This document shows, piece after piece, positions 36,224 to 62,266 of a stretch of DNA of 64,000 nt. The DNA comes from Vairimorpha necatrix (taxonomy: Eukaryota), in the NCBI GenBank assembly GCA_036630325.1, contig CP142733.1:806001-870000 (forward strand), written 5' to 3'. A model generated the notes under the pieces. It was not told where the DNA came from and searched no databases. It saw only the letters and a program-made list of their open reading frames with translations. The first letter of the stretch is position 1, and every line of letters starts with the position of its first letter. Made by a program: the position numbers and the translations under genes.

Positions 36224-39200
36224 TGTTATTTTTTTTACATGAGAGTTACTAGCCCAACATCTCCTCCACAGAACGGTTAGTCTTACTCCCTACAATTGCT
36301 TTGAGATCATAATGTCTCTTTTCAATAATTTTCTTATCCTCGGTATATACTAGGTAGGAATCAAACCACAAATTTCTTCAATATCGCCTTTTCTTTCGAA
36401 TCTACCACTATCCTGTTTGCTAAAATTACAAAATTTTCTCTCTTAGCAATCCTTAGAGCTAGCCTACTAAAAACTTTTTTTTGCCATTTTAATAAATTTC
36501 TTGGCAAAATCACGAGAGTTTTCCTACTTTACCTCTACATCAATATTTCCTTCGCAACAGCCTCTAAGGGAGTACACTTAAGTCGACTATGATACGTACT
36601 ATTATAAAACACCGTTGTCTTATTCACCGCAGCTTCAACGTAATTAGTACGCTGCTTAAACACGCCTTCCCGTATAGTTCTTATCGCCCCTTAGACCCAG
36701 CCGTTGCTTCTATGCTAACAAGCTTATGCTTGATCTTGTTTATAAAACACCACTTCCTAAAGTCTTCGCCTAAAAACTCTTTGGCGTTATCGCTTACAAT
36801 CACTTCGGGGATACCTCCTTCTTAAGCCAAGTCTCAAAAGCACTAATAATCATATTTGTACTTTTATCTTTTACAACACTGGCATACAAATATCGAGGAA
36901 ACATTCAATTATTATCAACCCCGATTTTCTAGGTTCAACAATCTCCATGATATCGGATAACAATTTTCTCGCCTTTAAACTCGATAAAACAAATTCAACA
37001 CCATCCTTATTCTTTATATTTATTATCTGACATATCATATGGCTCTCATTCCCTATATTTACTAATCTCACATTTCCGGCCAATAATAATGTTTCTTGAG
37101 GTCATAATCTGTTTCTTTACCCCCTCTGTGGTTTAACCATGTATGTCCTTTACTATTTTTGATCTCGCTTTTAATTTCGGGATTTCCATATGTAATCCCT
37201 TATCAAATTCCCAAAACTCTTTATTATCTTTGATCACTGTATGTTTTTCAATTTTTTCTTTCATTTCTGCAGTAACTTTTTCTTTAATCTATTATTCATT
37301 TTTATCTTTCTCATCCTGAAATTGTCTACTTTAAGCATTCGCATCTGCCATATTTTACCTTTTACATATTGTACGGTGAAGTCATACTCCTGTATCCTTT
37401 TAATTGTCGATTTACTCTGTTATTATTAAATAAAATGTTTGTTCCTGATTTCTTTTAAGGCTTAATGGTTCGTCATTAATTCGAATTTGCATTCTCTCAA
37501 TTTGTATGAAAAATTTTCTATGCCCCATACAACCGCTAACATTTCGTTTTCCGTGTAACATATCTTCAATCTGTTGGAGTCAATTTTTTCGAGCCCATTG
37601 TATAACATCCACTTTCCTTTTTTTATTCTTCTGTAAAAGCACTGCTTCCAGGCCAGATCCGACGCATTCGTACGTAACCTAAATTCCTTACGGTAGATCG
37701 GTATCTTAAGAGTCTGTAAATTGCTGAACTTATATTTTACTATACTAAATTCTTCTTCCATTATGATTAACAACTTCTATTTTTTACTCGTTTTATGTGC
37801 CTCAAATAAGTTTAATGTACTCGTATCAAAATTGTTAATAAATTTTCTAATACAGCCTGCTAATCCCAAAAATCCTTGCAACTCTTTTATGCATACGGCC
37901 GCCTATATAGCGCTTCATTTCTTGTTAACTCTGAAGAATTTTATATACTACCAACTATTGACACACCAATAAATAAACTTAACTTATGCTATGTTATTTT
38001 TTTGTAGGATTACCTTTAGACATGCTTTTGAAACTTTTTTATTACACCCAAAAATAACTCATCGTATCGCTCACCATCTTTAGCGTGGATAACTATATTG
38101 TCTAGGTATATTTCAACACCTTTTCCTCTAAATTCTTCTAAAATCCCATTCGTTGTTTTCTGCATTACCTGTGATGCGTTCATAAATCCCATCACCATGC
38201 TGATCCACTCGTACACATTCGCATCAAATAAAAAAATGTTTTATATTTGTGTTTCTATTCAATAGCTATGTATTAAAAAACTTCTTTAAGATCAATCACA
38301 CTAAATATCGATGATCCTTGAGTCGCTTGAAAAATGTCTCTTATAGTAGGTAACTCATAAGGGTCTAATTCAACCAAATCATTCAACCCCATAAGATTGC
38401 TTTTAATTCGTATCCCACCATAATCAGGCGTCTCAATCGTTCGTATCGGATCTATCCGATCTAAATTAGATCTCCTTATCACAACTCTGTTTTCTAAATT
38501 TATAAGTATCTCCTCGGCTCTTCTTTTGCACTTTTAAAAAATATTAAACCTCTTCTCAATACTTTTGCTCCATTAAGTGTCCTTATAAAACATCTTAACT
38601 TTGTCCCAATGTTATCTTCCCTCCGATTGTTTTAAACGTCTGCAGACTAAAAATTTTCTCTAATTGTAAAAACTATTATCTCTTTAAGTATTAAGTAAGA
38701 ACTCATTACACTTTTTAATCACATACTCATTTATCTTGACTACATAATTAAACTTCTTGTTACTATTATCAATTATAATGGCTGCTCATATCCTTCATGT
38801 CTAGCAATCTCCTTGTATTTTATCTTCCATTCAAGTTTGGTATTCGTAATTTATAGGCATTCATTATCCTAAATTACCTTATTTACCACATTATTTTACA
38901 AATACTAAAACAATAAATTTTTATTCTGATTTTCCCCTTCTTACTAATATGAACGATTCATACAGCTACTAGCTATATTTTCTACTATTCTACATACGAA
39001 ACATAGACTTAATTCTCTTCTTTGATATTGATAATGTTTTTCTGTATTGCCACTCTTCTGATCAGTTCCTCTTATATCTCATTTCTGAAGTTTTTTTTGA
39101 ACACACGCTAACTATTATAATTTTTTCTTCTTTATTTTTTTTTTCTCTTTGTCATTTTTAACTAACTTTTCATTTTCAAAATTTATTTCATTCCAATTTT

Positions 39201-39432
39201 TTTAAATTTCCTGAATTTTCTTCAATGATCAGATCCTGTAGTTCGACATTTGTTTGTCATAATGCCTGTTTTAAAAACTTCTGCAATCTTAATTCATTCT
39301 AATCATTGCAGCTATTCTTTTGGTCTCTTTATAAAGCTTTATGGCCTTCTGACCACGGGTCTCGCTTGTTGCCCCATTTACTCTTGTGTTCGCCATGTTA
39401 GTCTTTTATTCATGAGGGATTCCAACTCAACA
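36224..39432 (-). mobile_element. Full-length but decayed compact Gypsy element (3.2 kb) with 36/37-bp LTRs
   Basis: 5' LTR 39396-39432 and 3' LTR 36224-36259 (both TGTT...AACA); PPT GGAGGAGA; flanks ATAG/TTAG; frameshifted RT (SNLMGLNDLVELDPYEL, YLDNIVIHA), RNase H and integrase (IPEVIVSDNAKEF). Confidence 0.85.
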
Positions 39433-39508
39433 TTAGTGAATTTCCGTGTTTATGAAGCAAAAAATCTTACTGATGTAAAAAGAGTAAATTTAATCAAAAA
39501 TATTAGTA

Positions 39509-40102
39509 CATGACCGTTTGGAACCCGCTTTGGAAATTTAAAAGACCCCCTTTCAAAATTGGCAAAAGCAAATTTTGTTGAGGCAGATGAGCTTTGTAGT
39601 GATTAAATGAATTTAAACATTGAAAAAACGAATGTAAATATTTGAAACATTTGATTCTGAGTTGGCGTGCGCCTTGCTCGTTTCTAAACTAGTAAAAATA
39701 CTGTTTTTTTCTTAGGTAATAAAAGATAATGAATAACCTGTATCTATGATCACTAATAATGGGTAGCATATGAGGTCACATTAGACATGCAAATAGATAA
39801 AGCACAAGACTGTGAATCACTCCATCATTGCTGTATACCCTGGCGATTCTGAGACACAATACCAAATAATTTAAATGGATTTTGCTCATTATTAAATTAT
39901 ATATTCGATCTAGACATGGAATAAACCAGGACGAACACTATGAGTACGTTTTAAAGAACCTCGGGGCTTTCCAAATCCTCAAAAATCGACGTATAAATCG
40001 TATTCTTTCATTATTTAAAATAAATCGTTATTTTTCTTTTTTTAAGATTTTTTCCTTTTTTAAAGCGGATTCATTTTCCTAAGCGGGATCACGACGGTCC
40101 TG
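39509..40102. mobile_element. Non-autonomous TIR element, uninterrupted copy
   Basis: TA|CATGACCGTTTGGAACCCGC ... GCGGGATCACGACGGTCCTG|TA; body homologous to 27761-28287. Confidence 0.75.
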
Positions 40103-40196
40103 TACAAGAATATTTTTAAAATTATTATATATAAGTCATAAACAATATCTGAAATGATCAAATAAAACCTATACTTATTGGTTTTGTGAGCATCAT

Positions 40197-40411
40197 TGTC
40201 TAAGGTCAGATTTTTAGTGCTCAAATGGCCCTGTAGATTAAAGAATACTATTCCACAACTATGCTCCTCATTCTTTTTTAATCTTTTTGGAGGGAAATGT
40301 ATAATATTTTTCCTCCGACAAACATAAAAGAAACAAATATCCGAAGAATATAAAGGATAATAAAAATTAAGCCGTAAACATTTTAACTTACTGATAAAAA
40401 CTATCAGTGAA
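40197..40411 (+). mobile_element. Diverged solo LTR related to 1382-1605
   Basis: TGTC start; shared blocks CCCTG.AGAT, TTTTTGGAGGGAAAT, ATATTTT.CC, ATAATAAAAAT and the terminal CTGAT/ATCAG hairpin. Confidence 0.7.
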
Positions 40412-41180
40412 AAATAAAAATTAGTCAAGGTTTTTTTTTGGAGTTATATAAACGTTTTTTGACTCTCAATAATGTATTGCGAGCTACTTTCTGGCCGCTA
40501 TACTTGTTAAAAAGATATTAATCTTTAAATTTTTTTTTAATTTTTTTTTTCATGCCTCCGTTAAGTCTGACAATTCATCCCTTTATGTACATTTTTATAA
40601 GTTCAAACTTACTATTTATTGGAGCGAAAGTTTGTTTTTATGCAGATTTTCATATTATTAATTATATCCTGAATAAACATTTCATTTGTCATCATTTATT
40701 TGTTCAGGATGACATATTTGTTTACGTCCATAGCCTGGATGTAATTGATATATAGCGTTCGGTATTCGGTCCTGTTTAAATGTGAGAGGTACAGGGATGT
40801 CGTCTTGCAAAGTAAAATTACAAAATTATTAATATTCAATTTTTTATCAATTTAATAATATTCATATAATCTTTGTTGGAGTGTGTATTTTTGTAAATTC
40901 TTTTTTGTTTAAAAAAACTTAAGTATAGTGTAAATCATTTTGTTTGTTTTATTGATATTAATTGAAATTTAATTGTTAAATACACACTTTAACGTAAGAA
41001 TTGTTTGATGCACTTATACCCCGTTGTAAGTATAAAAACTTCCTTTTAGTTGTAAATGTATTTGATAATTAGCAAAAAAGAAAACTGATATTAACAACTT
41101 AAAAAATTGAATAATATGCAGCGTTTATACTCTTAGATAAAGCGCAATAAAAATAAAAGTCGTAATGTTGTAAAAATTTA

Positions 41181-42287
41181 TTAAATATTATTCCAATAAT
41201 ATCCCAAAACACACCCTAATCCTAAAATTGCGATATTATACATAATATTGAAAAAATAATTATTCATTTTCTGCTTACATATATTATTTTCGGATTCACT
41301 ATTTGAAGAAGATTCATTTTCACTCAAAAATGTGCTATTGTCTGAGTTTTCATTTATCTCATTATCTTTTTTTTGGGCGCGATCTTCTATTTCGTCTTCA
41401 TTTATTATTTCTGTGTTTTTTAAACCTTTTTCGAGGGTATTCAGGATTTCACTTTTCGTAAATTTACTTATTTTTGTTTCTTCGTCGTCAATTATAAAAT
41501 CTTTTTTATATTTATCACAAGCTTTTACGTAACATTGGTCTATCATCTTGTTTTTTGGCCGAGTGTTAACGTGTTCTTTTGCCATAATATCAAAGATATC
41601 ATTTTCTAGTGATGTATTTGTATTTTCAGTTTTATTTATAATAACATCATCCACAAAACTCCCATTATTTGCTATAATTTGATTAGATATTTCTTCTTTA
41701 TATTCTCCGAGGTCAGTTTGTATATTTTCTGTATTACAAATACTGTTTAACCCTTTAATAGTCATATTATAATCATTTTCATTCATACTAAAACATTCCT
41801 TCTCTTTAAAAGATAACCTATCGCAAATTAAATCATTATCAAACAAATATGATTCACTACATCCTATTGAAAGGATATGTATCTCTTTTTTATAGCAAAC
41901 CATCTCAAAAAAAAAGTTCCAGTTTGCTGCTATATTAAACCTGCATTTATAATACTTTATACAATTAATAAAATCATGACGTAACCTTTTATCTTTAATA
42001 GCAAAGGCTAGTTTCCTGATATCTACGCTTTCTTTCTTCTCTGTCCTTTCTAAATGAATACCTTTAATAAAAGTAGATTCAAAAATGTTTTCAATTTCAG
42101 ATAGTGGAGTATTTTTTGAGGAAGGTGAGCATACATCACTAAATAGAAAAAAATCAAACTTATTAAATTTGACAGCCTCAGCCGAAACACCTATGTAACC
42201 ATCACAAAAATCATCGCCATCGTAATTCACAAATAAAATTAATTCGCAATAACTTATGTGGAAACGCATCAGAAAATTCAAAAACAT
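41181..42287 (-). CDS. Putative membrane-anchored protein
   Basis: Likely start CCC-ATG at 42287 (MFLNFLMRFHISYC); acidic S/N-rich linker; C-terminal hydrophobic IAILGLGCVLGYYW. Confidence 0.8.
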   Translation of the reverse strand: MFLNFLMRFHISYCELILFVNYDGDDFCDGYIGVSAEAVKFNKFDFFLFSDVCSPSSKNTPLSEIENIFESTFIKGIHLERTEKKESVDIRKLAFAIKDKRLRHDFINCIKYYKCRFNIAANWNFFFEMVCYKKEIHILSIGCSESYLFDNDLICDRLSFKEKECFSMNENDYNMTIKGLNSICNTENIQTDLGEYKEEISNQIIANNGSFVDDVIINKTENTNTSLENDIFDIMAKEHVNTRPKNKMIDQCYVKACDKYKKDFIIDDEETKISKFTKSEILNTLEKGLKNTEIINEDEIEDRAQKKDNEINENSDNSTFLSENESSSNSESENNICKQKMNNYFFNIMYNIAILGLGCVLGYYWNNI

Positions 42288-45089
42288 GGGCTCAAAAAGA
42301 TTTCCGATATAAATATAGAAAGCAATATAAGTCATATTTGACATTAATATACATCATGATTTTATACATTCGAAAATTTGACATTAAAGTTACAAGTAAA
42401 AGAATTTGCTCAATGTTCAAATATTGTTTTAATTTATGTGTGAACATTAAAAACAAATACAAGACATAGCCAATTACGCAGGAAAAAAAACATTAGTAAT
42501 TGTTTATTGTTTGTTTCTTAATAAGTAAAGTGTTAAAAATTATAAAGTATCAAAAATTGTTCATTCACTATTTTAATGATGAAATTAATGATATTACAGT
42601 GTACGATTAATTTCAAAGACACCATTAAAATCTCTATAGCTTGATTTAAGCTAGCAATAAGTTTGGAACCAATATTACACCATAAAAACGGCCATAGTCT
42701 AATTTTTTTATAAATGATTATCAGAATTAGCAAATATGTAATCCTTGGTTAAATATATGTAGGTTTAATTTCTGTAGGAATTTTTTAGAACAAGGATCTT
42801 TTCTGATATAATTTAGCTACTATGATTCGATATACTTGCAACTGGGGATACGATTGAATTATATGGTGGTATCTGATGTCCATAAAAGAAAATGTAAAAT
42901 CTTCAAACATGTGTGATTCTTCAAAAAAAGGTTAGAATTTGTTCCCTCAAAAGTCACCAATACTCCTGCAAAATCTTTTACAGCTATATCGATCTAGATT
43001 TGCCATGACATCTTGCAATCCTAAGACAACTAACGTTATAAAGTCAAAAAAACAAAAATACGAGGCTGCATCGGCGAATTTTATGACAATGGTGTTTTAA
43101 CAACAAGAACAATAATTCTTAGAGATTAGTACGACTTACCCCCCCCCTTTACATTTCGAAAGACAGTACCAAATGTTATTATTCGGCTCGAGATATTTTC
43201 AACTAACTAAATATTTATTATTTATATTACTTATGCTCCATTTTAATTATAAATTTCTTATGAGTATATCTTATTAGTGAACATACTTAATGTACTAATA
43301 TTGTTAGTTAAGATTAAAATTTTATTTTAAAAAAATTAACTGTTTTATACAAGACCACTCTATAAAATTTTGAGTGTTTCGGAGAAAGAACGAAAAAAAA
43401 GATATTCAAGAAATATAGATTTTAAAATTTTATATATTTATAATGTTACTATTTAAGTTGTATTAAAGAGAAAACTAGATACGAAAGAGATAACTGATCT
43501 TTTTTATTATTCGAACAAAAATAAAAAATAAAAAATAAAACCTTCTGATAATCTTATTTATTCGTAGTATCATTTTCAACATCATCTTGATGACCTTTTA
43601 ACATATCGATTGAAACAAATTAATGTTCTGAAATAATTTTTTTAGTTTATTACAATGATCGTCAATCATTAAATTTTTTTGATCTACATAAATATTATTA
43701 TATAGCCAAAATACATCGGGGTCAAAATTTTCTTTATACTTTTTTCTTTGACCATAGGGAAATTAGTTATAACATAATTTTATGCTCTTTACGTTCAATT
43801 ATAGTTTTAAGAAACGTTTTACATTATATAAAAGTAATTTTTTTAGAGATTTCTCTTGAGAACGCATTCTCTAATGTGTTAGCAGCTCTGAATCAATAGT
43901 ACAATATGTAAAATCATCCGTTTTATATAAAATGATAATTGTTTATGTTCATTGTATGCCTTACTATCTGTAGAGAAAATGAACACTGTGTAATAATTGG
44001 ATTCAAAAGTATCTAATACACCATTAAATCCAATATAAATAACGAAAAAATCTTTTATTCTATATGGAAATAGCTAACTACCTATATTGGCGTTATATCT
44101 AATATAAACGATATAAATTTCAGCATCGAAAAGCAGAATTTTAAACAAAAAAATATTTTTAAAAATTTTATGATGAAAAATACATATTTGCATATTGTAT
44201 AGGTATGAACAACTTTTTAGTAAATAAAGAAGTCGAATTTGACCTAAAAATTCAAAAAACATTTAAAAAAAAATAATACGCTGCTTTTCTGTATTCACAT
44301 ATTTGTTTAGAAAGGCGCCTATTTAATTGTTTTTATGTGTCGCCGAATACAAAAAGATCACAATACTTTAAATCTAATTACAAAGACGAAGGTTTTTAAA
44401 TGTCTCAACAATACATTTATTACGGAAAATGATAAGAAATTAAAGATAATATTGATTTTGATTTGCAAAAACATTTACATGATAAATATAGATGATAGGG
44501 GAAATGCATGAATACTTCAAATCGTAAAGGATTAGATTATAATTATCAAGAAAGTTTTGTGGAACATTCTTAATATAGAAATAATAATATAAAATAACTC
44601 ATTTGTATCGTATATATGTGCTTAATATCTAGAAAGTAACCGTTTCTGTTGTAATAACACATTGAAATCCTGAACGGCATGCAAGTTAATCGAAAGAGAT
44701 AAAAGTAAAAAAATTAAAATCTTTATAAATCGCGGGTGGAAACTTGACAGTTAGCGCTATTATAATTATGGTTTGAAACAGTAAAATCGCATCTATATAT
44801 ATGATACAAAAAAAAATTCCAAGGGCTAAAAAGATTGCATCCGCGTAAACCGTTATGATACACGATGATAAAAGGTGTGACCATAAATATTTACATTTAA
44901 CAAAATAAAAAGCTTTTTAGATGACAGGCAAGTTTCAAGACGAATCAATATTGATACAACTTAAGTAAAAAAGAATAAACGAATTACACTAAATTTATTA
45001 TATTGTATTCTGATAAATTAAATTCCTTAAACAATAAATTTCGTCGCGGACTAAAAATGTCTTGAGAATAAGTTTAAAAACAAATCAAA

Positions 45090-45207
45090 TGTATTTATTT
45101 TCTATAATAGGGCTCAAAAATATAAGAATATATAACATCCCCCCTCCAAGACGGTTAGTCTCCTACGTCATCATCAACCCTAAGCAGATTTTTTTAGTCA
45201 TAGTGCC
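45090..45207 (-). mobile_element. Gypsy 3' end remnant: integrase tail, PPT and 48-bp LTR
   Basis: RHYD codons, GACTAACCGT motif, PPT GGAGGGGGGA, then TGTTATATATTCTTATATTTTTGAGCCCTATTATAGAAAATAAATACA, matching the LTR at 62218-62266. Confidence 0.8.
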
Positions 45208-45995
45208 TTTTTTTTTCTTGGAAGTAAGAGGTAGGGAGAAACCTTACATAGGGATCAGAGAGATTTGGGTATGAACTTCATCCAACTGGTACTGTATGAT
45301 TCTTAGTCACTAAAACTCCCTCCATACAACTTGCCGGTGCAGCAAGCTCCGCCGTATCCATTGGACTTTGGCTCCAGGAGAACATTTTCCATTTATACCT
45401 CAAATCGCGTCCAGAGTGACCTCACAGCAAATATACATATCAGGCATAGATATCTCTCCCTGTGAGAGACATCATCGTAGTGACTCAAAGGTCCCTACAA
45501 TCATCTGTATTGCACACATGGCTCCTTACACGACCACATCACCAGCCCTCCATTTTTATTGGACTGCGTTGACCACCAGTTTTCCATTAGTTTCGGCCAC
45601 CGTGTTACAGAATTTTGTAGAATAGGTTCCACGAGACCTTCTATTGTCCTACTTCTTCTAGTCTCTAAGTTAGTTCTAGGACCCCACTCTAGAGTGCATC
45701 ATTCATGGGTCGCAACTAGGCCGTACCCGTTAGATACTTTTATGTAACATTAAGTCACAAAAGGGTGGTACTACTTTTTGGCTTTGAGGTGCGTTTCTAC
45801 ATTATACGCTAATCCCCTTGTGGATTGACATACATAAGTTTCATTAAATTAACTTAATGATTATCGTGGACATTTTAATCATCTGAGTTGTTTCAACTGC
45901 ATCTTCCAAAAAGAATCAATTTTGGTGCCCCTGGGAATCGAACCCAGCCATTGCTCAATGGAAGCATTGCATTCTACCACTGTGCTAAGGGCGTC
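45208..45995 (-). mobile_element. tRNA-derived SINE, copy 2
   Basis: Head GCCCTTAGCACAGTGGTAGAATGC...CTGGGTTCGATTCCCAGGGGCACCA (A and B boxes); A9 tail; colinear with 6961-7743. Confidence 0.85.
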
Positions 45996-46284
45996 TCTTG
46001 TTTGTATATGCCTCCATTTTGGTTTTAATTGGAGCTCTTCGATTTGCGCGCGAAAAATTAGTTCTATTTCACACAAGTCATTACGTAAGGAATGTTAATA
46101 GACCAAATAGATAGATGTTTTTTTACTTTTGAGTGTTAGTAATGTGAGTATTCCTTGGTCCTCTCAATATATTTAATAAATATCTACGTCACGGGGTATT
46201 GTGTGGAATATATGTATTTAAGCTTAAATATTTCATATTCGCCGTTATTGCATATCTTATATTGAAAAGTTTCGAAACCATATT

Positions 46285-47169: not shown

Positions 47170-47437
47170 TAACAAGGATAGGTTGCGTTAGCGTCTCCTG
47201 CTTGTAGGCGGTTTCTCATCTCCATAGTCCTTTCCACATCGGCATCGCTCCTTTTATTCAGTAGTCCAGAGAAATGCTTTTAGCGTCTTTTTTAGCGTGA
47301 TCATCTGGATGTACGCTTCTACTTTCCTATGGATTTCACGTTTTGTGGTATAAGATTTGTACAACTTAGTCACTATACTGTCCCAAGTTATTACGTAGAG
47401 AATTATTTCTGTTTTAAAACCATATATTAGGCCCAGT
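47170..47437 (-). mobile_element. RLE non-LTR 3' fragment (subfamily B)
   Basis: LGLIYGFKTEIILYVITWDSIVTKLYKSY...KVEAYIQMITLKKTL. Confidence 0.8.
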
Positions 47438-47532
47438 GGCTCTCGAGGACATCATACTTTTTAATTTTCTAGCATTTAAAATTACACCTAACATACATTT
47501 GCATTTTTACTCTTTAATGTGTAAATACAGGG

Positions 47533-47664
47533 GTTTGCATTTATATATTCCCCTGTTTGCGTTTCTATATTCCCCCGTTTGCATTTCTATATTCCCATGT
47601 TTGCATATCTATATTCCCATGTTTGCATATCTATATTCCCATGTTTGCATTACTATATTCCCAT
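47533..47664. repeat. Six tandem 22-bp units GTTTGCATTTCTATATTCCCAT
   Basis: Counted directly; two inverted units at 48713-48756. Confidence 0.9.
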
Positions 47665-47790
47665 AAAAATAAGAAATTTCAATAATTATAAAAAATATTT
47701 ATTAAATAAAATCTTCTCTTGCTCTTGCCTTTTCTATCCAGCCTATCATATTTCTGTAAAACGCAGGACACTCACGGTTATAATCCAAAC

Positions 47791-48686
47791 TCAAAACATT
47801 TCAAAAAATTGTTTCAATTGGAATTTCTGATGAATGAAAAGATCAAATCTTGTCTTGATCATTGAAAAATACTCTTCCATGGGATTTAGTTGTGGTGAAT
47901 AAGGAGGCAGAAATTTGTGACTAATGCCTAGATTATTTAATTTTTGTAAAACTTCCCGCGAATGATGAAAACTAGCATTATACATTATAAGAACTTCACC
48001 AGGATTATTCCTAAAGAACATAGATAATTTATTATTAACAAAGTTTATAAAACTCTCGGAACTATATGCTCCGCGTTTATATGCAAATTGCAATAATCCA
48101 TTTATAGTAATTACACACATACCGCTTATATTTTGGCCACTATTTGCTGGCAAATTCTTATAAGCTGTAGTATTCTTTTCTGAATATCCGTAACTTTGCA
48201 TAGTATGAGCGTTAAACGCAGTTTCATCGAGAAAAACTAGGTTTTCGTCCGAGTAACTACTAATTTCGAAGGCATAAATACTTCTTTGGTTTATTTTGTT
48301 CAACGAGTTACGTTTAACAGGAATCAAACTGAGCCTTTTTCTTGTTATACCGAGTTTTTGAGTTTTCTTGATATTGAAGATTTTGACAAATTTACATTTG
48401 TTCGTAAATTTAACTCATTAGAAATTTCCTGTAAAGTCATATCGTTTGCACAATCAACTATGTTTTTAACAACCCGGTCTGTATTCATAAGCATTTCATT
48501 TTGATTCAACTGCCGAATAGACCTTGTAGGTTTATTGTGCTGGTTTCGAATAATAGATGCAACGGTTTTACGATGTAAATCAACCATAGTCGATATTTCG
48601 GCTATGGATCGCTTTTCATCTTTTGCCAATTCGAAAACGATATTCTTTAATTCGTTAGTTATTGTTTTCCTTATTTTTCTTACCAT
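47791..48686 (-). pseudogene. Frameshifted DDE_3-type transposase
   Basis: HTH part starts MVRKIRKT (CCCC 3 nt upstream); shift near 48345; VFLDETAFN, IMYNASFH (catalytic D replaced by Y), LPPYSPQLNPMEEYFS. Confidence 0.88.
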
Positions 48687-49377
48687 TAAGGGGATTAAAA
48701 AATTCAAATTTTTATGGGAATATAGAAATGCAAACAGGGGAATATAGAAATGCAAAACCCCGTAACAGGGTTTTTTATCGAGAAGGTTCAAATTAAAAAT
48801 TTAGATAACCTACATAGTAGAATTTTATAACATGCCTTGGGATGATTCTTTCTAAATTTATTATTATATTATTCTTACACATGGCTTTTTTTTTATATTT
48901 GTAAAATAAAAAATGCAAAAACAAAATTGTGCTTCAATATAAATTTATATATAAAAATTAATGTAAACTGCTTCAACTCTTTAAAATACATTGTATTTAA
49001 TATTAAATAAATGTATTGTGTCGAAAAATAGAAACATTGGTATTATTAAATAAAATATAAAAATTAGGCACAATCTTAATTTGAGTTTTATTAGTTTTTG
49101 ATGCGTGTTGGTAAAAAGCATTGAAAATGAAATTATGTATGAAGCGTATGTTAATAATATAGTTAAATTCAATTTATCATAATTAAAATTTTTATGTGTT
49201 AAGAAAAATCAAAAAGAGAAGTGATTTGAAACTTAAAATCATAAAAAAAATAAAATAATTAAGTGATGTGAATTTCATAAGCTTTTTTTTGATCACATTA
49301 AATTACTCTTTTTCTTAAAAAAATTTTATAAAAAGATGACATTTATTTTGACTTTTAAACTAATTTTTTTATACCTT

Positions 49378-51571: not shown

Positions 51572-52702
51572 AGTAATATTTCTATACATTTTTAAATTTT
51601 TACAATTTTAAATATAATAAGTAAAGTTTATAATTGTTTAATTTTAATTTTTTTTAAAATTATTAAGGGATATTATTTATTTTTATTTATCAAGATTAAA
51701 CATTGTTCATACTTTAATATTTAATTAAAATATTGTATTTTCAAAAAAATTTATGTCATGAACCATTTGTTCTTTGGCCTTTACGCGTAATTTTTAATTT
51801 AACGATTTTTGCACATGAAAGCTGCACAAAAAAAAAGATAAATTGATAAATAGTTACAACAAAATTAACTATTCGAAATTGTGCCTATAAGCTAAAACAC
51901 TATTCATTGGTTTCGCCTTATACTGACACAATATTACTATTTGAATGTATTAAAAACGAATTGTTTTGGTGCAATTCTTAATAAATTGATCTCAAACTAT
52001 TAGAATTTACAAAAAAAGGTACGCAGTTATATAAATAACAAGCAGAAGAAAAAATACTACAAATAAAATGCCGATTTTCGTTAAATATTTATAATATTTT
52101 TACAAGTCCTCTTAATTGTATTAAAATTACGGTATATCATTAATCAATTTTGTCACATTTATACATATTCGAAATAATATCTAATGGATTTTATTTGTAA
52201 TAAATGTCAAGGAAATAAAATTGGATACTAAATGTTGTTTGTTTACACATATACAATTATGAATGTTTTTTGTAGACTTACTCTTTAAATATTAAGCCAT
52301 GTTAGTGACAGATCGATTTTTGTAGTTTTATAATATAGAAATCTTATTATGTTGCAAGCTTTTTAATTGATTTTATTGCAAATATGTGTCATAAAAGTTT
52401 TTAGCAAAATGCATTTCTAGTTTTTTTTTTTTCTAGATAATATATTTAAAACCTAAAATTTTAGTAAATAACAGTATATAATGTATAAATAATCTTTGCT
52501 GTTTGTCTATTGTAATACTCTAAAATATAAGTAAGAAGAAAGTAATTTAATAAATTTTAGGTAAAGCTTTTTATGGATATATTTGACATTTTGAATATAA
52601 TAAACAATTACAACATATTTGAACTTGTACTCGTGTTTAAACTTTATCAATATAAACTTGTTTTTTTTAATTAAAAAATAAATTTTTCGTTTTTTTATCC
52701 TT

Positions 52703-54979
52703 ATGAATATATTTGTAAATTTTATTTTAATTTTATTTATACAAGGTTGTCAGGATATCTACAATAAACTTAACTATGTAATTAACAAAAAAATTGAGAA
52801 TAGAGATTATGTAACGATTGATTTGAATAAAGACTGCTTGAGAATAAACTTAATGTGGAAAAAAGATACAAGCTCACTTATCGCGAGTTTAAACATTGAT
52901 TTTTTTGATAATATAGATAAAATATCTTTAATAGAAATTAATTGTATTGACAAATGTATTGAAATTATTGTCAAAGAACTCGAAGAAAAGTTATCACATG
53001 AAATTAAGAAAACTACAGCAAGCTGTATTATTTTAAATTATTTTCCATTGGTTTATGAATGTATTCCAATTTACAGAAATGTCGTTATACATTTAAAGAA
53101 AACTAATATAATTAGAAAAGATAAAAAATTGAATCATGAAATTTTTTACACATGCATTATTGAAAATAATATTATATGGAACATAGTTTTTAAAATCATA
53201 AAATTCAATAATCTAGAATCCGAGTATAAACACGAAATCGATTTTCCACTCAATTTTATAAGAAAAAACAATAATCTTTTTATATGTTTTTATATTAATT
53301 TGGAAAATTTAGTTTTTTTCTTTGAAATAGACGTTAAAGATCTTGATGTTGAAAAACTTTTCCCATATATTAACATCATTACGTCTCATACAAATGAAAC
53401 AGACAAAATTATAAGCAAAATTATACATGAACTATACAAAAAAGACAAGATTTATAGGATATGTAATTCTTATACGAGGGGCATGACGATCTATAATCGT
53501 AAAAAAGTAGTTTTAATTTATAGAGATTTTGAAATAGAGCTTAATGATGACAGTTTACAAATTAAACAAAAAAGTGCAAAATATAATTATTCTTTTAAAG
53601 ATGATTCAAACTATAATGGAATTAAATCTAACATTGATGATAAATGCTTTTTAGAGTTTCAAGATTTTTTTAGAAAACTCTATATAGTGATAGAAAAAGA
53701 TGAATGCTCTATAGGAGTAGAGATGTTTTACCGATTAATCGAAAGCTATGGTAAAGTACTGTTTTTTGTGAACAGAATTTTGAATAATCGAGGTACAATT
53801 TTAAATATAATATTTACGCACCTTTTATTAGCAAATGAATTAATTGATAACAATGAGTTACATAAAATTATATTAGATGATAAATTAAATGATTTGAGGA
53901 TAATTGAACTTCAAAAAACGATATTAGAAGCCTTTTCAAATCATAGTGTATTGTCATGTACGATGTTGATGAAAATATGTTTGTTTTTTGATGCTGAACG
54001 ATATATAAATGAAAATGATATTAACAATGAATCAATCTTTGGTACTTTGAAAAAAATTGGAAAACTTATAAGTTTAAAAGATAAGAATCAAACTGATAGT
54101 GAATTAAATGCATCTGATGCCAAAGAAAAGATTGATTTGTTAGAAATATACCAAGATGCAGTTTCTAATCATTTGGATGACATTGAAAATTTCAAGAACA
54201 TTGTCAGAGAATATGTTTTTGATATGACATCATTATTTACTGGAAAGATGAAAAATATATCGGAAAATGATATAAACTATATTTTTAATATTCGTACTGA
54301 AGTTACTACAACCTTTAATATGGAAAAAAAAATTATTCAAAGTAATAACGACACAATAAGAAAAAAATTGCAAGAAAATTATCGAAAAGATGAAGAAAAA
54401 GATAAAATAAATCAATTAAACGCAATTAAAAGTTTTAAAACACAATTAATTGATAAAAATTTTATAGAGGAAGACATACAACATTATAAAAATAAAGTTA
54501 AAAGGATTATATATAAAAATGTAATAACAAAATTTAAAAAACAGTTAAATGAAGTTGTAGATTTTACTGACATAGAAATAACTAGCAAATTCTTCATTAA
54601 CTTTAAATACGAAATTTTTAATATAATTGAGAGAATGATGGAATATGATGATATAATTAAAGAAACAGTAAATTTAATTCTGATTGTTGACAAAGATTTT
54701 ATAAATAATTTTAAAATCGATAAAAATTTGAATCAAAAATTAAAATTTTATATTAATGAAAACATAAGAAAACATAGCAAAACGATTTTTCCAGCGGCCT
54801 TAATACAAGTTTTTGAAAGTAATTTTACAAATGATAAAAATTTCAAAATCAAATGTGCAAAAAAATTGGATTATATACAATCAGTTTTAAATTCAGAAGA
54901 TATATTATTTTTATACAACGAATCAGGTAAAAAATTGCTTAAAGATTTGTTGGCAGTATTGGAAACAAAAAAAATTTAA
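52703..54979 (+). CDS. Large putative secreted family member 2 (758 aa)
   Basis: Signal-like MNIFVNFILILFIQG; colinear paralog of the previous gene. Confidence 0.88.
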   Translation: MNIFVNFILILFIQGCQDIYNKLNYVINKKIENRDYVTIDLNKDCLRINLMWKKDTSSLIASLNIDFFDNIDKISLIEINCIDKCIEIIVKELEEKLSHEIKKTTASCIILNYFPLVYECIPIYRNVVIHLKKTNIIRKDKKLNHEIFYTCIIENNIIWNIVFKIIKFNNLESEYKHEIDFPLNFIRKNNNLFICFYINLENLVFFFEIDVKDLDVEKLFPYINIITSHTNETDKIISKIIHELYKKDKIYRICNSYTRGMTIYNRKKVVLIYRDFEIELNDDSLQIKQKSAKYNYSFKDDSNYNGIKSNIDDKCFLEFQDFFRKLYIVIEKDECSIGVEMFYRLIESYGKVLFFVNRILNNRGTILNIIFTHLLLANELIDNNELHKIILDDKLNDLRIIELQKTILEAFSNHSVLSCTMLMKICLFFDAERYINENDINNESIFGTLKKIGKLISLKDKNQTDSELNASDAKEKIDLLEIYQDAVSNHLDDIENFKNIVREYVFDMTSLFTGKMKNISENDINYIFNIRTEVTTTFNMEKKIIQSNNDTIRKKLQENYRKDEEKDKINQLNAIKSFKTQLIDKNFIEEDIQHYKNKVKRIIYKNVITKFKKQLNEVVDFTDIEITSKFFINFKYEIFNIIERMMEYDDIIKETVNLILIVDKDFINNFKIDKNLNQKLKFYINENIRKHSKTIFPAALIQVFESNFTNDKNFKIKCAKKLDYIQSVLNSEDILFLYNESGKKLLKDLLAVLETKKI

Positions 54980-55149
54980 GAATAAATATAATATTATGAG
55001 ACATATCTTAATTAAACATTTAACAAACGAACAAACGTATCAAATATTTATATTTATAAACAATGATGGATAAGCTGTAGTCATACAATCATTCCGTATA
55101 AATTAATGTTAACAACTGGATTTTTTATACACTAATTTTTACCTTGCGC

Positions 55150-55380
55150 GAAAAAAACCTTAGAACCCAGAATGAAGCATATATACCGACAAAGTTCTTT
55201 TAGATGATTTTTAAAAGTCTAATATGTCAATCAGGCATGGATTTGATACTGATCAGGAAGGGGTAACAAAGAGCACAATATGTGATTTTTAAAGCAACAC
55301 ATAATTGTCTGAAGAGATTGTGAGTGCATCTTGTGATAAGTAATTAGCAAATAAGATATTACAATAAATAAATTAGATTA
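55150..55380 (+). mobile_element. RLE non-LTR 3' fragment (subfamily A)
   Basis: TTAGAACCCAGAA, ATGTCAATCAGGCATGGATTTGATACTGATCAGGAAG and TCTTGTGA.AAGTAATTA match 1625-1790 and 19.7 kb. Confidence 0.75.
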
Positions 55381-58140
55381 TTTTTTATTAAGTATTAGAT
55401 TTTTTCCAGTTATACCTTTATAATTATATGATTGCTTGACCAATACATCTATCAGAACATGTATATAATTTAAAAGGGAATTAAGGTGCAAATTAGTTGC
55501 GGGGGTACAATTATGAATGATGTACACGAATACATAAAAATTTTAGGCAATTATAAGGATCTTTAAGTCAATAAAATAGATTATATGAATGTAAAAACTA
55601 GATATAAACATCGTTTTTAATAAAAATAACACAAATAAATGATATTGTAGAAAATCACATTGCCGCAGCCTTATATTGTTTTAACTAATATTATTTCAGT
55701 TTTTTTTATTTTATAACATGACAAATGCAGGTGTATAGAACGTAATTTTTTTGCTAAAGAATACCTGTTTTTAACTCAAAAACATTTTATACTGCAGAAT
55801 GTCATACAAAATACACAAAAATGGTACAAACTAATATAATGAATTTACTTTATATGTAGATTTTGTAATAGAACGATAATTTTTTATCTAGATTATATTA
55901 TCGCTATCTAATGACCATTATTAAATATAAAATTCTAATATGTAAATTTTTAGGAAACTGAAATAACTAAATATACAATAAAAAATGTGGTCATTTCTGC
56001 AAATATAAAAACTTAAAGATCATTGAATAACTAATTGGTGGAATTTTTGTTGAGAAAATGTTTGATTTAAATTTTATTTTATCATATATTTATAATTTTA
56101 TCTCTCTAAAAAACAGGTTTTAAATATAAATGATTGTTTTTCTACTAAGTTTATATATAAGACAATAATAAGTCAAAAAATTCCCGGATCAATGCTTATT
56201 GCTAAAACCATTGGAATATAAGAATTTTAAAATTATATAATGTGAATAGTGAGGCTGATGCTTTAAATAATTTGGTGTTTATGGAGAAATGCAAAAAAAC
56301 TACAAAAAGAGCGGGATACGGCTCCTTTGCTTACATTGTCATAGTACTAATTTTTTTTTTATTTTTGGGAAAAAAAACTATCAAAGTAGAAAATCTAGAT
56401 ATCCAAAAAAGTAATGCTTTTTTGATTAACAAAACTATAGATGATGTACAAACCAAAAACTTACATATTTATAAATTTTTTCCTAATATATAAATAAAAG
56501 TGTTTGATACTTATTAAAAACCACTATTTAAAGAATGTATGTTGTATTTTTTTCAAGAAAATTTAATAAACTTGTATTGCATAATAAAGATGCAAAGTCA
56601 CATATATTTATTAAGTTTTAGGTGTAAACTTAAATGATGTACTTTAAATGCACTGAAAAAATAAATCAAACATTTTTATAAAAAGATGGTAAATTATTGG
56701 TAGCGTCAATTATACGCTTTAATATTGACAGCTTTGTAAAAAAATAAATTTTAAGGCTGTTAATTCTAAAATAGAAAACTACACATATTTTTTTTAAATG
56801 CAAATGCCAACAATTACAATTTCTTTCATTTCGTGAAGTTTATGAGAGAATATGTGATAGTAAAAATAAAAAGATAGACATATTAAAAAAACATAGTTTT
56901 AATATTAAATATAAATAAAGATAATATAATTGTGTAAAGTCGTTCCAATATCTATAAAATTTTTCTAATGCGGGTTGAAAATGAAAATTATTAAATTAAA
57001 AATTGCCTGATATTGATTGCTTATTATTATAGAAATTTATATTTATATATCAATATTCTATGTTCAAAAATCATAATGTATATTTCTATTATTATAGGTT
57101 ACTTTTTAATTCTTTTTCAAATATTCATTTTTTGTATTTTTAATCCATTTAAATCATAAATGTAATGTTTTTTATGGTACTTGATAAATATTTCATATGC
57201 ACATTAACATAATTACTATTAACATTTATTATTTTAGTTATTATAATGTGACTTAACAATTACAAGAATAAATAATTTTGGGAGTTCTTCATGCTTAAAT
57301 ATTCAGTCTATTGTTTTGCTGAAACTGTTATACTAATTTCTTCACCACACACTAAAGACAATTTATCTAATTTGCAGCTGCATATATTATAGTTTTAAAA
57401 TATACATCGAACACTTCTATACACAAAATATATAATATTAAAAATTTTACTTCAAATTAGTGATGTTAAAAAACTTCACAAGTTATTTTAGTTTTTTGCT
57501 TCTTGTAAATACAAAAACAATGAAACTTAAGGAACAAAAGATTTATTAAGACTTATATGTAGTAAATAGTACTAACAAAAAACTAATTTGATTGCAGAAA
57601 ATATGATATCCAAAATAAATATTTTAAAAAGCTCTACTATATATTTTTTTTACAGATTTTCTAAAAATAACACATTGACATTTTTAAGATAATTATTTTA
57701 GAATGTTATATACCTGTTTAATAGTAGTCACTAAAAGTTATTTTATAAGTTCCAATTCGTATTAAAAATTTTACGTTTTATCAATTTAATCATTTAATAT
57801 GGATATCAATTGTAATGATAAATTGTTATGAAATTTTCAATAAAATATTTTGACATAAATTAAAAAAATATACTAAATAAGAAAAATGACATATATTGCA
57901 ACTATATCAAAATTAATGAGTGCAACACAAAATTTTTTTTCAATTTAATTAATGTCAAACCCATCATTTGGATACATATAAGTGACGTTTGATATTAGTG
58001 ACGCCGCCAAGTTTAAAGGCATAACATCTAATTTGAAGCTGGATTTGCAAGTTATAAATGAGTTTCGAGTTTATAAATTTATCATACATACTAAATTAAT
58101 TTTTTTTTCTCCTATATATAATTTTGAAAATTTATTACCC

Positions 58141-59601
58141 ATGATAGCTTTAAAAATTTTCTATTATTTTTATCTAGTACAATCTACAAAATACTTTGTT
58201 AAACTTAACATTGTCTTAAACGAACAGATTAAAAAAAAGCAATACTATACTTTCGACACCACTAAAGGAATTTACAATGATATTTTAATGTATGAAGATG
58301 TTATGTCCTACATATCTTCTACAAACAAAACAAAAGATGAGAATATTATGAGAGCTATAGAAAAAATCAAATCAGAATTGTTTGACAAAGATAATATAGA
58401 TGATCTAAATAATGTTCTGATTTATGAAAAACATGATAACGATGACTACAATAAAATTATAGATGGATTAATAGAATATAATTACAAAGTTAAAAACAAA
58501 GAAAATGTTTTTTCTTATGATATTATTGTTGAAAAGGATAGTCCTACTTATAAATTTATTTTTGATAACAATATTACTGCTGAAAACGTTAAATTCCCAA
58601 AACTAAGTCGTCCATTTTTATACAATTTTGTCTTTAAGCTAGACACAATTTTCTATTTCACAGGAATCAATTTAAAAGATCTCGGGATTGAAGAAATTTT
58701 TAATGTGCATTTGGAAAAGCAATTTGCGTATAAAAACTACAATGATAGATTTCTTAATCTTACTCTTCAAAATTTTAATTTTTTTGAGCTCAATGAAGTA
58801 TATGGATTTAAACAATATGAAAATACTGGTATACATGAAAAGCGCGACTTGAATGATTTAGACCTTAAATATCATGACTTCGTAATTTTACCTAGTGAAA
58901 ATATTATAAAATATAAAAATACTACAAAGACAATAGTATTTTCATATAATAAAGAATTTCTAAATATCTATGACGATACGAAAAAAAATATAGTCATTGA
59001 TGAAGTAATATATGGAGATTTGTTGAGATTAGTAAAATTCTATCAAAAAAATCAAAGCAACAAAAACGAAATTAATCTATTGATAAGATATATTTCAAAG
59101 AATTACCCACTTAAATCTCTTATAGAAAGTATCTATGCGAACAAATACACTGCAACTTATATATTTTTTGAAGAAATTCGTACCATTTCTAAAGTATTAA
59201 GTAGAACTGATTTGAACTATATCATAAACAATATTGATATTTTAAAAAAAGCATCTTCGTGCATTTCAGGATTACATACAAAATCAAATCAAATAGCAGA
59301 TAACTTTATAGATTTTATTCTTTATGAAGATAATAATATTAATTACATGATAAAAATATGTTTAATTATAGAATTTGAAAAACATATCAACAATAAGAAC
59401 CTTGATTTAAGAATATTTAAAACAATAAAAAATATTTCGAAATTGTTTGAAAGTACTAATAAAGATGAAGTTGATATAGTATTATTATTTGAAGAGTTAT
59501 TAAATAAAAAAGACGTAATTTGTGAGGCTATTAAAAGCACGTGGAATGATATTTTTAAAGCTTTTTTATATTTAAAAAACAAGAAGGAAGAAATTAATTA
59601 A
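58141..59601 (+). CDS. Large putative secreted family member 3 (more diverged)
   Basis: CCC-ATG at 58141; KLNIVLN..I.K..Y.T, I.LKDLGIE, MIKICL..E.EK.IN, IFKTIK.I.KL match members 1 and 2. Confidence 0.8.
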   Translation: MIALKIFYYFYLVQSTKYFVKLNIVLNEQIKKKQYYTFDTTKGIYNDILMYEDVMSYISSTNKTKDENIMRAIEKIKSELFDKDNIDDLNNVLIYEKHDNDDYNKIIDGLIEYNYKVKNKENVFSYDIIVEKDSPTYKFIFDNNITAENVKFPKLSRPFLYNFVFKLDTIFYFTGINLKDLGIEEIFNVHLEKQFAYKNYNDRFLNLTLQNFNFFELNEVYGFKQYENTGIHEKRDLNDLDLKYHDFVILPSENIIKYKNTTKTIVFSYNKEFLNIYDDTKKNIVIDEVIYGDLLRLVKFYQKNQSNKNEINLLIRYISKNYPLKSLIESIYANKYTATYIFFEEIRTISKVLSRTDLNYIINNIDILKKASSCISGLHTKSNQIADNFIDFILYEDNNINYMIKICLIIEFEKHINNKNLDLRIFKTIKNISKLFESTNKDEVDIVLLFEELLNKKDVICEAIKSTWNDIFKAFLYLKNKKEEIN

Positions 59602-59849
59602 ATTAAATTTTTAATCGACATATTTTATACAAGAAATTACATTATTTTTTTGTTTTTCCAATTAAAATATGTTAAAAATATCATAAATAAATCAGTGGAT
59701 TTTTTATGAGAAAATGCCGGAAACGTTTTTTAATATCATTTTAGTTAGTTTTTACAAGTACAATCAATATAGAATATAACTATCATGGGTTAAAAACAAA
59801 TTTTTTTCATTTATTTTTTTTTATATTTTAAACTTCTGTAGTTTTTTTT

Positions 59850-62050
59850 CTCCGGATGAGATTCCACCGAGCTATACAAGGTACTACTTAAACCTAGTTT
59901 AGTAGATAAAAAGCTACCTCTGTTCTTAGTGAACGAGTTCAACAGAATACTAACAGGAGACCGCCCTCCTGTTAGCTGGAGTGCTGCTGACATGATTTGC
60001 CTCCATAAAAAAGAGGATGTGTCAGATCTCAACAACTATAGAGGAATTGCGCTAATTAACACAATAAGCAAAATTTACTTAAAAATAGTAAACGACAGAC
60101 TTACACAGTTTGTTGAAGAAAAGAACATTTTTTCATCTTTCCAAGCCGGATTTAGAGCAGGAGAAGAATGTATGAATAAGATCGCAACCTTGCTGGAGGT
60201 GGTTAAAAGAAGAGAATTTCGAAGTCAACAAACATTTCTATGTTTTTTTTACTTTGAAAAAACTTACGACAATGTTAGCCATGATCTACTATTTAATAAG
60301 CTAGAAAGGTATAGTATTCCAAGATATCTTATAAACACTTTGAAAGATATCTATGGAAATACTAAGATGAGAATCCATATAAACGGAGACACAAGTAGTG
60401 GATATCTCTACAAAAAAGGTGTGAGACAAGGGTGCCCCTGTTCTCCTACGCTGTTCAATCTATTCATAAATGATATTTTGGACGGCATAACAGGAGTGAG
60501 CGTTCCTCACTTAAATATAAGCCTGCCTGGACTGATGTTTGCAGATGACATCGTAGTTCTAGGCAATACTCTTGCTGATCTGTAACACAAAGTGTGTCGA
60601 ATCAGTAGATGGGCAGTTGAAAATCGTATGAAGATCAACTGTGACAAAAGTGGTATCTTAGTATGGGATGCCAGTAATATATCCGAGTCTGTAGATGTCG
60701 CTATCAGGACTGACTTTGGAAAAATCGGTGAAGTCGCCGAATACAGGTATTTGGGTGTTCTTATAAAAAGATCTACTTTAGAAGAACACTTAGTAAGAGA
60801 TGGAGCCTTCAGAGGCAAAAAAGCTTTATAAGTCTTGAAACCAAAGCTTCTAAATAAAATAATTAATATAGCTTTTAAAGGTATATTAATAAAAAATGTG
60901 CTATTTCCATCACTAATGTGCGGAAGTGAATTATGGGGGATGTCTAGTATAAGGTCTGGTGGGATCAATAGAATCCTAATAAAAGCGATCCGAATGATAT
61001 TTCGAACAAAAATAGTGCCATTAGATAGGATAATGGACGAACTCTGTATGAATAGAGTTCACATACAGGCGGCCCTAAGTAGATTTAGGGCATTAAGGAA
61101 GTGGAAACACAATAAAACCATTATCTCGGAATTTATTAATTAACCTTCGAGGGAAAAGAAAACAACGTGGAGTTTAAGGACTAGACGTTGGTGTAAGAGA
61201 TATATCGGGAACGATTATGAAAGCATTGCCTACATTATAGGCAAGAACAAGATTTTAGAGGTACTTAAGGCAAGGGGTTCCTACAACACCACCTTAGGTG
61301 CTCTAGTAGCAGATAAGTATGGAATCTGTGACTCGCAGATTAAGCACATACAATCAAAAGTAAACAACAGGCAGATCAGGAATTACACCAGGCTTCGGTG
61401 TAATTTAGTCAGATGGTCTTCTGCTTTGGCTAATGCCAACAAAATCCCTCCTTTTTATAGAACTCATTGTTTCCTATGTGAGGGAGAACGAGAAGACCTT
61501 GAACACTTCTTTTAGACTGTCCGACGCTCTCTAACACAAGATCTCTATATGAGAATTAAATATCTGAGTTGAGATCTTCAATTCAAACAAAAGAGAAGCT
61601 AGTTAAGATGATTATTAGTAACATCAATGGCATCAAAGCTTGTTTTGATAAAAGGAAGTCTCTACTTGTAAGAGTTAAATTCATAGACAAGATGGTTGTA
61701 CAACGATACATTGTTATACGAGAAAGGAAAGGCTTGTAAGCCAGAACAGATCTAGAGAAATCTAGAAGAAAAAAAAACACACTCTTACCTGGGGGAGGTA
61801 TGGCAAGCTGCTGGTGCCGTAGCATTTACGTTAAACTAGTTAGGTTTTTAACTGACGAGTGGGTCAGACGTGTTATTCTCTGAATACCCTGCTGAACGCA
61901 GGTAGGTCACAGACAGGAATGATTGTGGTTCTAATCCTAGTGGGATACTTTTTCTCCTTCGAGCAAGGCCTTTATAGTATGCTGGTTTAATCGCAAGTTA
62001 TTGGCTATTGAAGTTTTTATTTGCTGGGTGGCTTTTCTTTAATAACAATA
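59850..62050 (+). mobile_element. 5'-truncated LINE-type non-LTR retrotransposon (pseudogenised RT)
   Basis: YRGIAL, QAGFR, GVRQGCPCSPTLFN, MFADDI, YRYLG, C-terminal CFLC..EDLEHFF*DC; in-frame stops; TAATAACAATA tail; possible degenerate ~20-bp TSD AAA.TT.T.TAGTTTTTTTT. Confidence 0.88.
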
Positions 62051-62126
62051 AAAGTTTTTTAGTTTTTTTTTTGTTATTACCAATCTTGATATTTTTTTTT
62101 ACATGGTTTCATTTTATATTAATAAT

Positions 62127-62146
62127 GCGGGTTCCAAACGGGCATG
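62127..62146. repeat. Isolated end of the CATG-CCGTTTGGAACCCGC TIR family
   Basis: GCGGGTTCCAAACGGGCATG is the reverse complement of the TIR at 39509 (one mismatch). Confidence 0.65.
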
Positions 62147-62217
62147 CGTCTGCGTTTTTGTTTATATTAATTTTTTTGCAATTAAATGAATACAATTATG
62201 AAGATATTATTAATTTA

Positions 62218-62266
62218 TGTTATATATTCTTATATTTTTGATCCCCAATTATGATAAATAAATACA
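62218..62266 (+). mobile_element. 49-bp 5' LTR of a compact Gypsy element
   Basis: TGT...ACA ends; first 24 and last 11 nt identical to the PPT-adjacent LTR at 45090-45137, with no similarity outside; contains CCCC and AATAAA. Confidence 0.8.

Follow-up and report, generated by a model that had tools for sequence, protein, structure and literature searches.

Gypsy-type retrotransposons with probable long terminal repeats of 36–49 nt in the microsporidian Vairimorpha necatrix

How short can a long terminal repeat (LTR) be and still serve a retrotransposon? The common view sets the minimum at about 80–100 bp. The question is raised by a 64,000-nucleotide stretch of the Vairimorpha necatrix genome (GenBank assembly GCA_036630325.1, contig CP142733.1, positions 806,001–870,000 of the forward strand), which we call the window and number from its first base. 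An earlier reading of its sequence, referred to below as the original prediction, proposed gypsy-type elements bounded by repeats of less than 50 bp. We analyzed the decayed element A, element B, which continues past the end of the window, and B', the 3' end of a second copy of family B, together with relatives found elsewhere. We consider it likely that they belong to a microsporidian-specific clade of Ty3/gypsy-type LTR retrotransposons, about 3.1–3.2 kb in length, in which LTRs of 36–49 nt carry all LTR functions.

All four repeats in the window were found at the coordinates noted previously, and all begin with TG and end with CA. Element A had been described as bounded by repeats of 37 and 36 bp, the latter directly after a polypurine tract (PPT); both coordinates proved correct, and the two copies are identical at 27 of 37 aligned columns. 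Likewise, the 49-bp repeat at the start of B and the 48-bp, PPT-adjacent repeat of B', put forward as LTRs of a second subfamily, match at 45 of 50 columns. The block GACTAACCGT does precede both tracts, at 36273–36282 in A and at 45151–45160 in B' (minus strand), where the tract GGAGGGGGGA itself occupies 45138–45147. In the 5' copies of A and B, TGG, the beginning of a candidate primer-binding site (PBS), follows directly after CA; in the 3' copies of A and B' a purine tract lies directly before TG. Outside these limits nothing is shared: unrelated AT-rich DNA precedes the first base of the B repeat, unrelated DNA follows the last base of the B' repeat, and the 25 nt outside the A and B/B' repeats are identical at 9–10 of 26–28 aligned columns. 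The first 24 nt of the B LTR recur exactly at 45114–45137 in B'. No other match to these 24 nt with up to three mismatches exists elsewhere in the window, none was obtained in any of 100 dinucleotide shuffles of the window, and no further solo copies of the A or B repeat were found within it.

When element A was searched by tblastn with P0002, a relative of 1017 aa, residues 255–1013 were matched at 32–55% identity. The matched pieces correspond to reverse transcriptase (RT), RNaseH and integrase and lie in shifting frames, so this copy is decayed. The last 15 nt of its 5' LTR match the end of the 3' LTR of a relative, L006, at 14 of 15 positions. The frame of B contains RVT_1 and RNaseH domains before the window ends and is 66% identical to a Vairimorpha necatrix protein, its best named match. 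Its 5' LTR is laid out as TG at 62218, CCCC at 62243–62246, ATG at 62251, AATAAA at 62257–62262 and CA at 62265–62266.

Relatives were collected by a protein search, which gave 93 matches (the best named ones from Vairimorpha necatrix, Nosema granulosis and Enteropsectra breve), by scans of metagenome and genome contigs, which gave nine loci, and by a search of the two metagenome-assembled genomes (MAGs) holding them, which gave many more. Six LTR pairs could be compared: A, B/B' and four external ones (L002/L003, L008/L025, L012 and L022) from unrelated metagenome or MAG contigs. Identity inside the repeats ranged from 73% to 100% (27/37 to 75/75) and stopped at TG and CA in all six pairs; in the adjoining 25 nt it fell to 9–13 identical positions of 26–29 aligned columns, which is background. 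The bases next to the L012 and L022 repeats are unrelated. CA is followed by TGG at every one of nine 5' ends (window A and B, L002, L008, L012, L017, L020, L022 and L024). In the close clade, all seven 3' ends (A, B', L003, L006, L025, L034 and L038) have a run of purines immediately before the LTR, which itself starts with TGTT in six and TATT in one. The 3' LTR of L006 measures 38 nt; the LTR of L020 is at least 170 nt, so the related clades are not all this extreme. With similarity that stops at TG and CA and a layout that recurs in independent contigs, the central structural claim of the original prediction, that these are true LTRs of 36–49 nt, is upheld.

Several candidates were set aside. 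Logan contigs of 3.03–3.16 kb with frames of about 1000 aa were dropped as support for tiny LTRs, because Logan unitigs break at any repeat and their sizes show merely a nearly all-coding interior. In the plus-strand element of L001/L002 an RNaseH fragment is joined directly to gag residue 20, without an intervening LTR; this element was taken as rearranged or chimeric and was not used. Terminal identities in L016 (72 nt) and L018 (the full 139 nt) are likely assembly overlaps, and no LTR length was taken from them. No relatives were found among viral contigs. The two MAGs (G001 and G002, holding L006–L040), labelled Clostridium sp. and Turicibacter sp., contain dozens of contigs encoding eukaryotic gypsy polyproteins, with 50 and 16 matches; these contigs are probably mis-binned low-GC eukaryotic DNA.

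Domain order and phylogeny place the elements. Pfam domains follow the order RVT_1, RT_RNaseH, Integrase_H2C2, rve in P0002, P0017 and L012, which is the Ty3/gypsy order. A tree was built from 28 rows: 17 of the 93 matches (full-length or named ones, together with five distant outgroups), the frames of nine loci and the two window frames. In it, window B and L006 fall with the named Vairimorpha, Nosema and Enteropsectra proteins in a clade of 14 rows (support of 100 in the Shimodaira–Hasegawa-like approximate likelihood ratio test), with L012 as sister. Separate clades unite window C, a different gypsy family described below, with L024, and L022 with L020. Clade members have single frames of 985–1021 aa and are kin to microsporidian elements. 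Read together, the sequences show TG..CA ends, a PPT adjoining the 3' LTR, a TGG-type candidate PBS adjoining the 5' LTR and one gag–RT–RNaseH–integrase open reading frame (ORF) that fills the interior. The TG..CA ends would serve the DDE integrase.

How, then, does so compact an element accommodate its coding frame? At all nine 5' ends an ATG bridges the LTR/PBS junction, the LTR contributing its final A and the PBS its TG, and opens the polyprotein frame, so that the PBS is translated. In A this ATG opens a frame MANTR, as in P0002, P0012 and P0018. In B there are two in-frame ATGs, one at 62251 inside the LTR, 4 nt after the CCCC, and one five codons later, at 62266, which straddles the junction; the AATAAA between them is itself read as codons. 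Protein sequences fit the same layout: of 18 full-length clade proteins (985–1021 aa), 17 contain, among their first 12 residues, a Met with G, A, V, D or E next to it on the C-terminal side, and in 10 of these 17 this Met is internal, 3–6 residues after an upstream start, as an in-frame TGG site requires. The other end is equally tight. The L012 frame runs from an ATG at 286 to a stop at 3550–3552, 18 nt into the 3' LTR; that of L006 stops 14 nt into its 3' LTR, and the remnant frame of A at nt 9–11. Tails ending in ..GGDV.. or ..GEGDV.., the product of a purine tract reading into TGT, occur in five of the 18 clade proteins. The single predicted gene thus begins in or at the 5' repeat and ends in or beside the 3' repeat. 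This overlap of the ORF with both LTRs, the coding PBS and the want of a recognizable protease are three points that go beyond the original prediction.

As to the protease, a CX2CX4HX4C knuckle is present in all 10 clade proteins examined (Pfam zf-CCHC scoring below its cutoff), and none of the 10 has a D[ST]G motif between this knuckle and the YxDD of RT. Nor did any Pfam protease family match P0002 or P0017 at E values up to 0.1. The sister element L012, with its 58-nt LTR, has LLDTGA and weak protease matches. Judged by these motifs, the protease is either lost or diverged beyond recognition in the clade of about 1000 aa that has the shortest LTRs. Its polyprotein might be used unprocessed or be cut in trans.

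Protease loss together with short LTRs might also signal decay: the repeats would then be real, the elements dead or non-autonomous relics, immobile or mobile only by way of protease-bearing families. The state of element A and the fact that no target duplication was seen fit this view, as does the missing protease. Against it stand eighteen distinct full-length frames (985–1021 aa) from many sources, which share one layout in spite of being 40–60% divergent and thereby indicate long-term selection for function. Window B, moreover, is open over all 583 codons present, and in the proteins examined all catalytic domains score well. We therefore think that relics are an improbable explanation.

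The signals within the repeats suggest how such an element might be expressed. Of the 13 non-gypsy ORFs of at least 150 aa in the window, 7 have a CCC in the 16 nt that precede their listed start, against a background of 4.1–4.5% of all 16-nt windows. Each intact LTR had been predicted to contain this host-type CCC and an AATAAA; the statement holds for B, B' and the 5' LTR of A, but not for the decayed 3' LTR of A, where both are lost. Microsporidian genes have 5' untranslated regions (UTRs) of less than 7 nt. If B follows the host rule, its transcription would start close to the ATG at 62251, a few bases away at about 62245–62250, and the first 25–30 nt or so of the LTR, AT-rich and with the CCC, could act as a minimal host-type promoter (U3). 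The AATAAA near the LTR end would direct cleavage at or just beyond the LTR. Since it lies just 4 nt from that end, 3' cleavage would fall at or past the CA and the whole stretch would be available as strand-transfer repeat. The repeat that could serve the first strand transfer (R plus any U5) would come to about 16–22 nt, and the strand-transfer region of 10–20 nt postulated originally is a reasonable inference.

Minus-strand synthesis would be primed by a host tRNA on the TGG site and plus-strand synthesis by the purine tract. Tf1-like self-priming, without tRNA, from the 5' end of the element's own RNA is the alternative here. Some relatives are named "Tf2 polyprotein" in databases, the single gag-pol frame is as in Tf1, and CCCCA in the B LTR could, by eye, pair with nucleotides 1–5 of the PBS. 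However, no LTR stretch of 8 nt or more complementary to the element's own PBS was seen by eye in A, L012 or L022, and the invariant TGG suits the CCA end of a tRNA. Self-priming is in our view very unlikely, and tRNA priming is preferred.

A further sequence may take part in priming. At a distance of 0–5 nt upstream of the PPT, A, B', L003, L006 and L025 carry the block GACTA[AC]C(C)GTCT, which is altered in L034. In L003 it is located after the stop codon and is therefore conserved as nucleotides. It could extend the PPT or provide a second contact for the tRNA. Ty3 has a bipartite PBS, and the block could resemble the 3' half of that site, tethering the primer tRNA, and the 5' end with it, to the RNA's 3' end.

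Could the true LTRs be of ordinary size (100 nt or more), the 36–49 nt matches being only their best-conserved core? Longer LTRs do occur in related clades, as in L020, and the window holds a different gypsy family, C, whose two copies share about 120 nt beyond the purine tract. In L024, a relative of family C, about 54–64 nt separate the tract from TGG, and alignment with L024 did not fix the family C boundary. For the short repeats of A, B and their relatives, however, all six pairs lose similarity precisely at TG and CA, and the repeats of L012 and L022 are 100% identical next to unrelated bases. The 5' copies also run straight into TGG and coding sequence and the 3' copies follow an integrase tail and purine tract, leaving no space for further LTR. 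Ordinary LTRs thus seem scarcely tenable. Chance matches beside retroelement debris, conceivable in a window so AT-rich that short AT-rich words are frequent (about 26% G+C; about 20–37% per 2-kb bin), have a negligible probability, given the exact 24-nt match never seen in shuffles, repeats flush with PPT and PBS and a layout that recurs in four external pairs.

Some observations nevertheless weigh against functional LTRs of 36–49 nt as we describe them. No single intact copy of the clade with both LTRs at 36–49 nt was seen, because B exits the window, B' comes from another copy and A is decayed. Agreement between the flanks expected for a target-site duplication is 3 of 6 positions in A (decayed), none in L012 and 5 of 6 in L022; the contigs may be assembly chimeras of several copies. 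The tract next to the L012 LTR is G/C-rich and lacks a purine-only run. PBS sequences differ between families, and the two tRNA-Met-like genes of the window do not match them by eye. The family C LTR may be longer. Transcript start and poly(A) sites are deduced from sequence rather than from RNA, and it is protein kinship that points to a microsporidian origin of the MAG and metagenome contigs.

If the assignment is right, a 36–49 nt LTR between PPT and PBS is a new lower bound for the length in which two integrase ends can be combined with promoter, poly(A) signal and strand-transfer repeat. The selfish element would be compacted in the manner of its microsporidian host: signals overlap, hardly any UTR is left and the coding frame runs through cis-acting sites. 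The loss of a protease raises the question of how the polyprotein matures. A bolder proposal, which we find rather doubtful, is that no autonomous LTR retrotransposons known are smaller, and no functional LTRs shorter, than those of this clade. Its elements would be protease-free and 3.1–3.2 kb long, with U3, R and U5 together in 36–49 nt, a strand-transfer repeat of at most 20 nt and GACTA[AC]C(C)GTCT assisting the first strand transfer by tethering the tRNA. There is also a practical side. Structure-based LTR finders at default settings will miss such elements (the default minimum LTR of LTR_Finder is 100 bp; PMC10741241), which will distort estimates of repeat content in microsporidia and of insertion ages derived from LTR pairs.

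Coordinates of the gypsy elements in the window and of the LTR pairs and conserved blocks in related contigs
Feature	Position	Strand	Description
Element A	36224–39432	−	decayed full-length gypsy copy; 3209 nt LTR to LTR; tblastn and both ends read
Element A, 5' LTR	39396–39432	−	37 nt; TG..CA, with CCC and AATAAA
Element A, candidate PBS	39383–39395	−	begins TGG; adjoins 5' LTR
Element A, GACTAACCGT block, 5-nt spacer and PPT GGAGGAGA	36260–36282	−	abuts 3' LTR
Element A, 3' LTR	36224–36259	−	36 nt; decayed, CCC and AATAAA lost
Element B, 5' LTR	62218–62266	+	49 nt
Element B, candidate PBS	62267–62285	+	begins TGG; inside coding frame; extent approximate
Element B, gag (CCHC knuckle)–RT–RNaseH frame	62251–64000	+	583 codons, open to window end
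B', 3' LTR	45090–45137	−	48 nt; second, 5'-truncated family B copy; directly after GGAGGGGGGA
B', integrase C-terminal tail remnant (HYD.. codons), GACTAACCGT and tract	45138–45207	−	remnant about 60 nt
L002/L003 LTR pair			49 + 49 nt; 44/49 identical
L008/L025 LTR pair			47 + 46 nt; 45/47 identical
L012 LTR pair	229–286 and 3535–3592		58 + 58 nt; identical; around intact 1088-aa frame
L022 LTR pair			75 + 75 nt; identical; neighbouring bases unrelated
GACTA[AC]C(C)GTCT block, L003	3199–3210
GACTA[AC]C(C)GTCT block, L006	2701–2712
GACTA[AC]C(C)GTCT block, L025	about 1531–1541
Family C, 3' part	1–1606	+	RNaseH–integrase ORF (1–1446), different gypsy clade; purine tract GGAGGGAAA at 1477–1485; 3' terminal region
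Family C, second 3' end	40229–40408	+	decayed; 72% identical to 1417–1600

Other features of the window are recorded here. Just after the 3' end of family C, at 1626–1794, lies one copy of a dispersed repeat of about 160–200 nt, 73–78% identical to copies at 19594–19817 and 55160–55383. In the family C relative L024, the reverse complement of 1–420 shows in succession an integrase tail, a stop, a purine tract, about 54–64 nt, TGG and gag, which reflects either two copies in tandem with a common LTR or an assembly that ran through a repeat of less than k-mer length. Just upstream of B, at 59929–61700, is the remnant of a non-LTR reverse transcriptase of the long interspersed nuclear element type, with stops (RVT_1 match at 59929–60585). 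B' ends where a repeat common to 6961–7740 starts, and abuts one of two copies of about 785 nt, 86% identical, at 6961–7743 and 45208–45995. Both copies start with a tRNA-Met gene called by ARAGORN (7674–7743 and 45923–45995, minus strand), and Rfam gave no match at gathering threshold in the window, these units included; the unit might have arisen as a segmental duplication or as a repeat derived from a tRNA. DNA transposons are also present. A seemingly intact Merlin-type element at 32633–33656 encodes a 278-aa ISXO2/IS1595-like DDE transposase (32706–33542) between 86-nt inverted repeats that are 98% complementary, with CCCC 12 nt before the ATG. Within 47511–48764, a 22-nt tandem repeat forms inverted arrays (47511–47686 and 48694–48764) on either side of a DDE_3 (Tc1/mariner-type) transposase remnant (47791–48327, minus strand). 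Finally, a 123-nt inverted repeat at 28295–29116, 98% complementary with arms 545 nt apart and with related pieces at 32291–32369, may be an element resembling miniature inverted-repeat transposable elements.

How do these elements compare with known systems? Ty3 of Saccharomyces cerevisiae, the type member of Metaviridae, has the same domain order, TG..CA ends, a short PBS that begins with TGG and a purine tract at the 3' LTR. Its LTRs are about 340 bp long, its two frames are joined by frameshifting, it has a protease, and it inserts at start sites of RNA polymerase III. Here, in contrast, the LTRs measure 36–49 nt, there is one frame without a recognizable protease, and no targeting of tRNA genes was seen. 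With Tf1 and Tf2 of Schizosaccharomyces pombe the elements have the single gag-pol frame in common, and some relatives carry the automatic name "Tf2 polyprotein". Tf1 primes itself and has LTRs of about 350 bp and a protease; a Tf1-like complement of the PBS at the start of the element's own transcript amounts, by eye, to at most 5 nt in B and was not seen in A, L012 or L022.

Closer at hand are the microsporidian elements already described. According to the part of their article that is available, Parisot et al. (2014; PMC4202319) described microsporidia-specific Ty3/gypsy groups in which gag and pol are not separate but form one polyprotein. The present clade shares with those groups the RT–RNaseH–integrase order and the single polyprotein, and its nearest named proteins are microsporidian. 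The available text of that study does not give LTR lengths, an overlap of ORF and LTR or a coding PBS, which are features of the present clade; the portion of its supplement that was searched does not mention "LTR" or "length", and lengths may stand elsewhere, for instance in its figure 1A. Searches of the literature apart from Xu et al. (2006) and Repbase yielded no statement on LTR lengths of microsporidian gypsy elements, and an earlier description is possible. The gypsy elements Nbr1–8 are known from Nosema bombycis (Xu et al. 2006, via PMC2474625), and nearly all elements of that species encode a protease, as far as the accessible part of this source goes (PMC2474625), whereas none was recognized in the present clade. 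The shortest LTRs that we found in print, in a source available in part, belong to two elements of grasses, likewise with TG..CA ends: FRetro129 (SMART), a non-coding, non-autonomous element of 292 bp with LTRs of 85 bp, and FRetro64, a copia element of 5.2 kb with LTRs of 76 and 90 bp (PMC3281118). Compared with these, the LTRs described here are about half as long and lie in coding gypsy elements of 3.2 kb.

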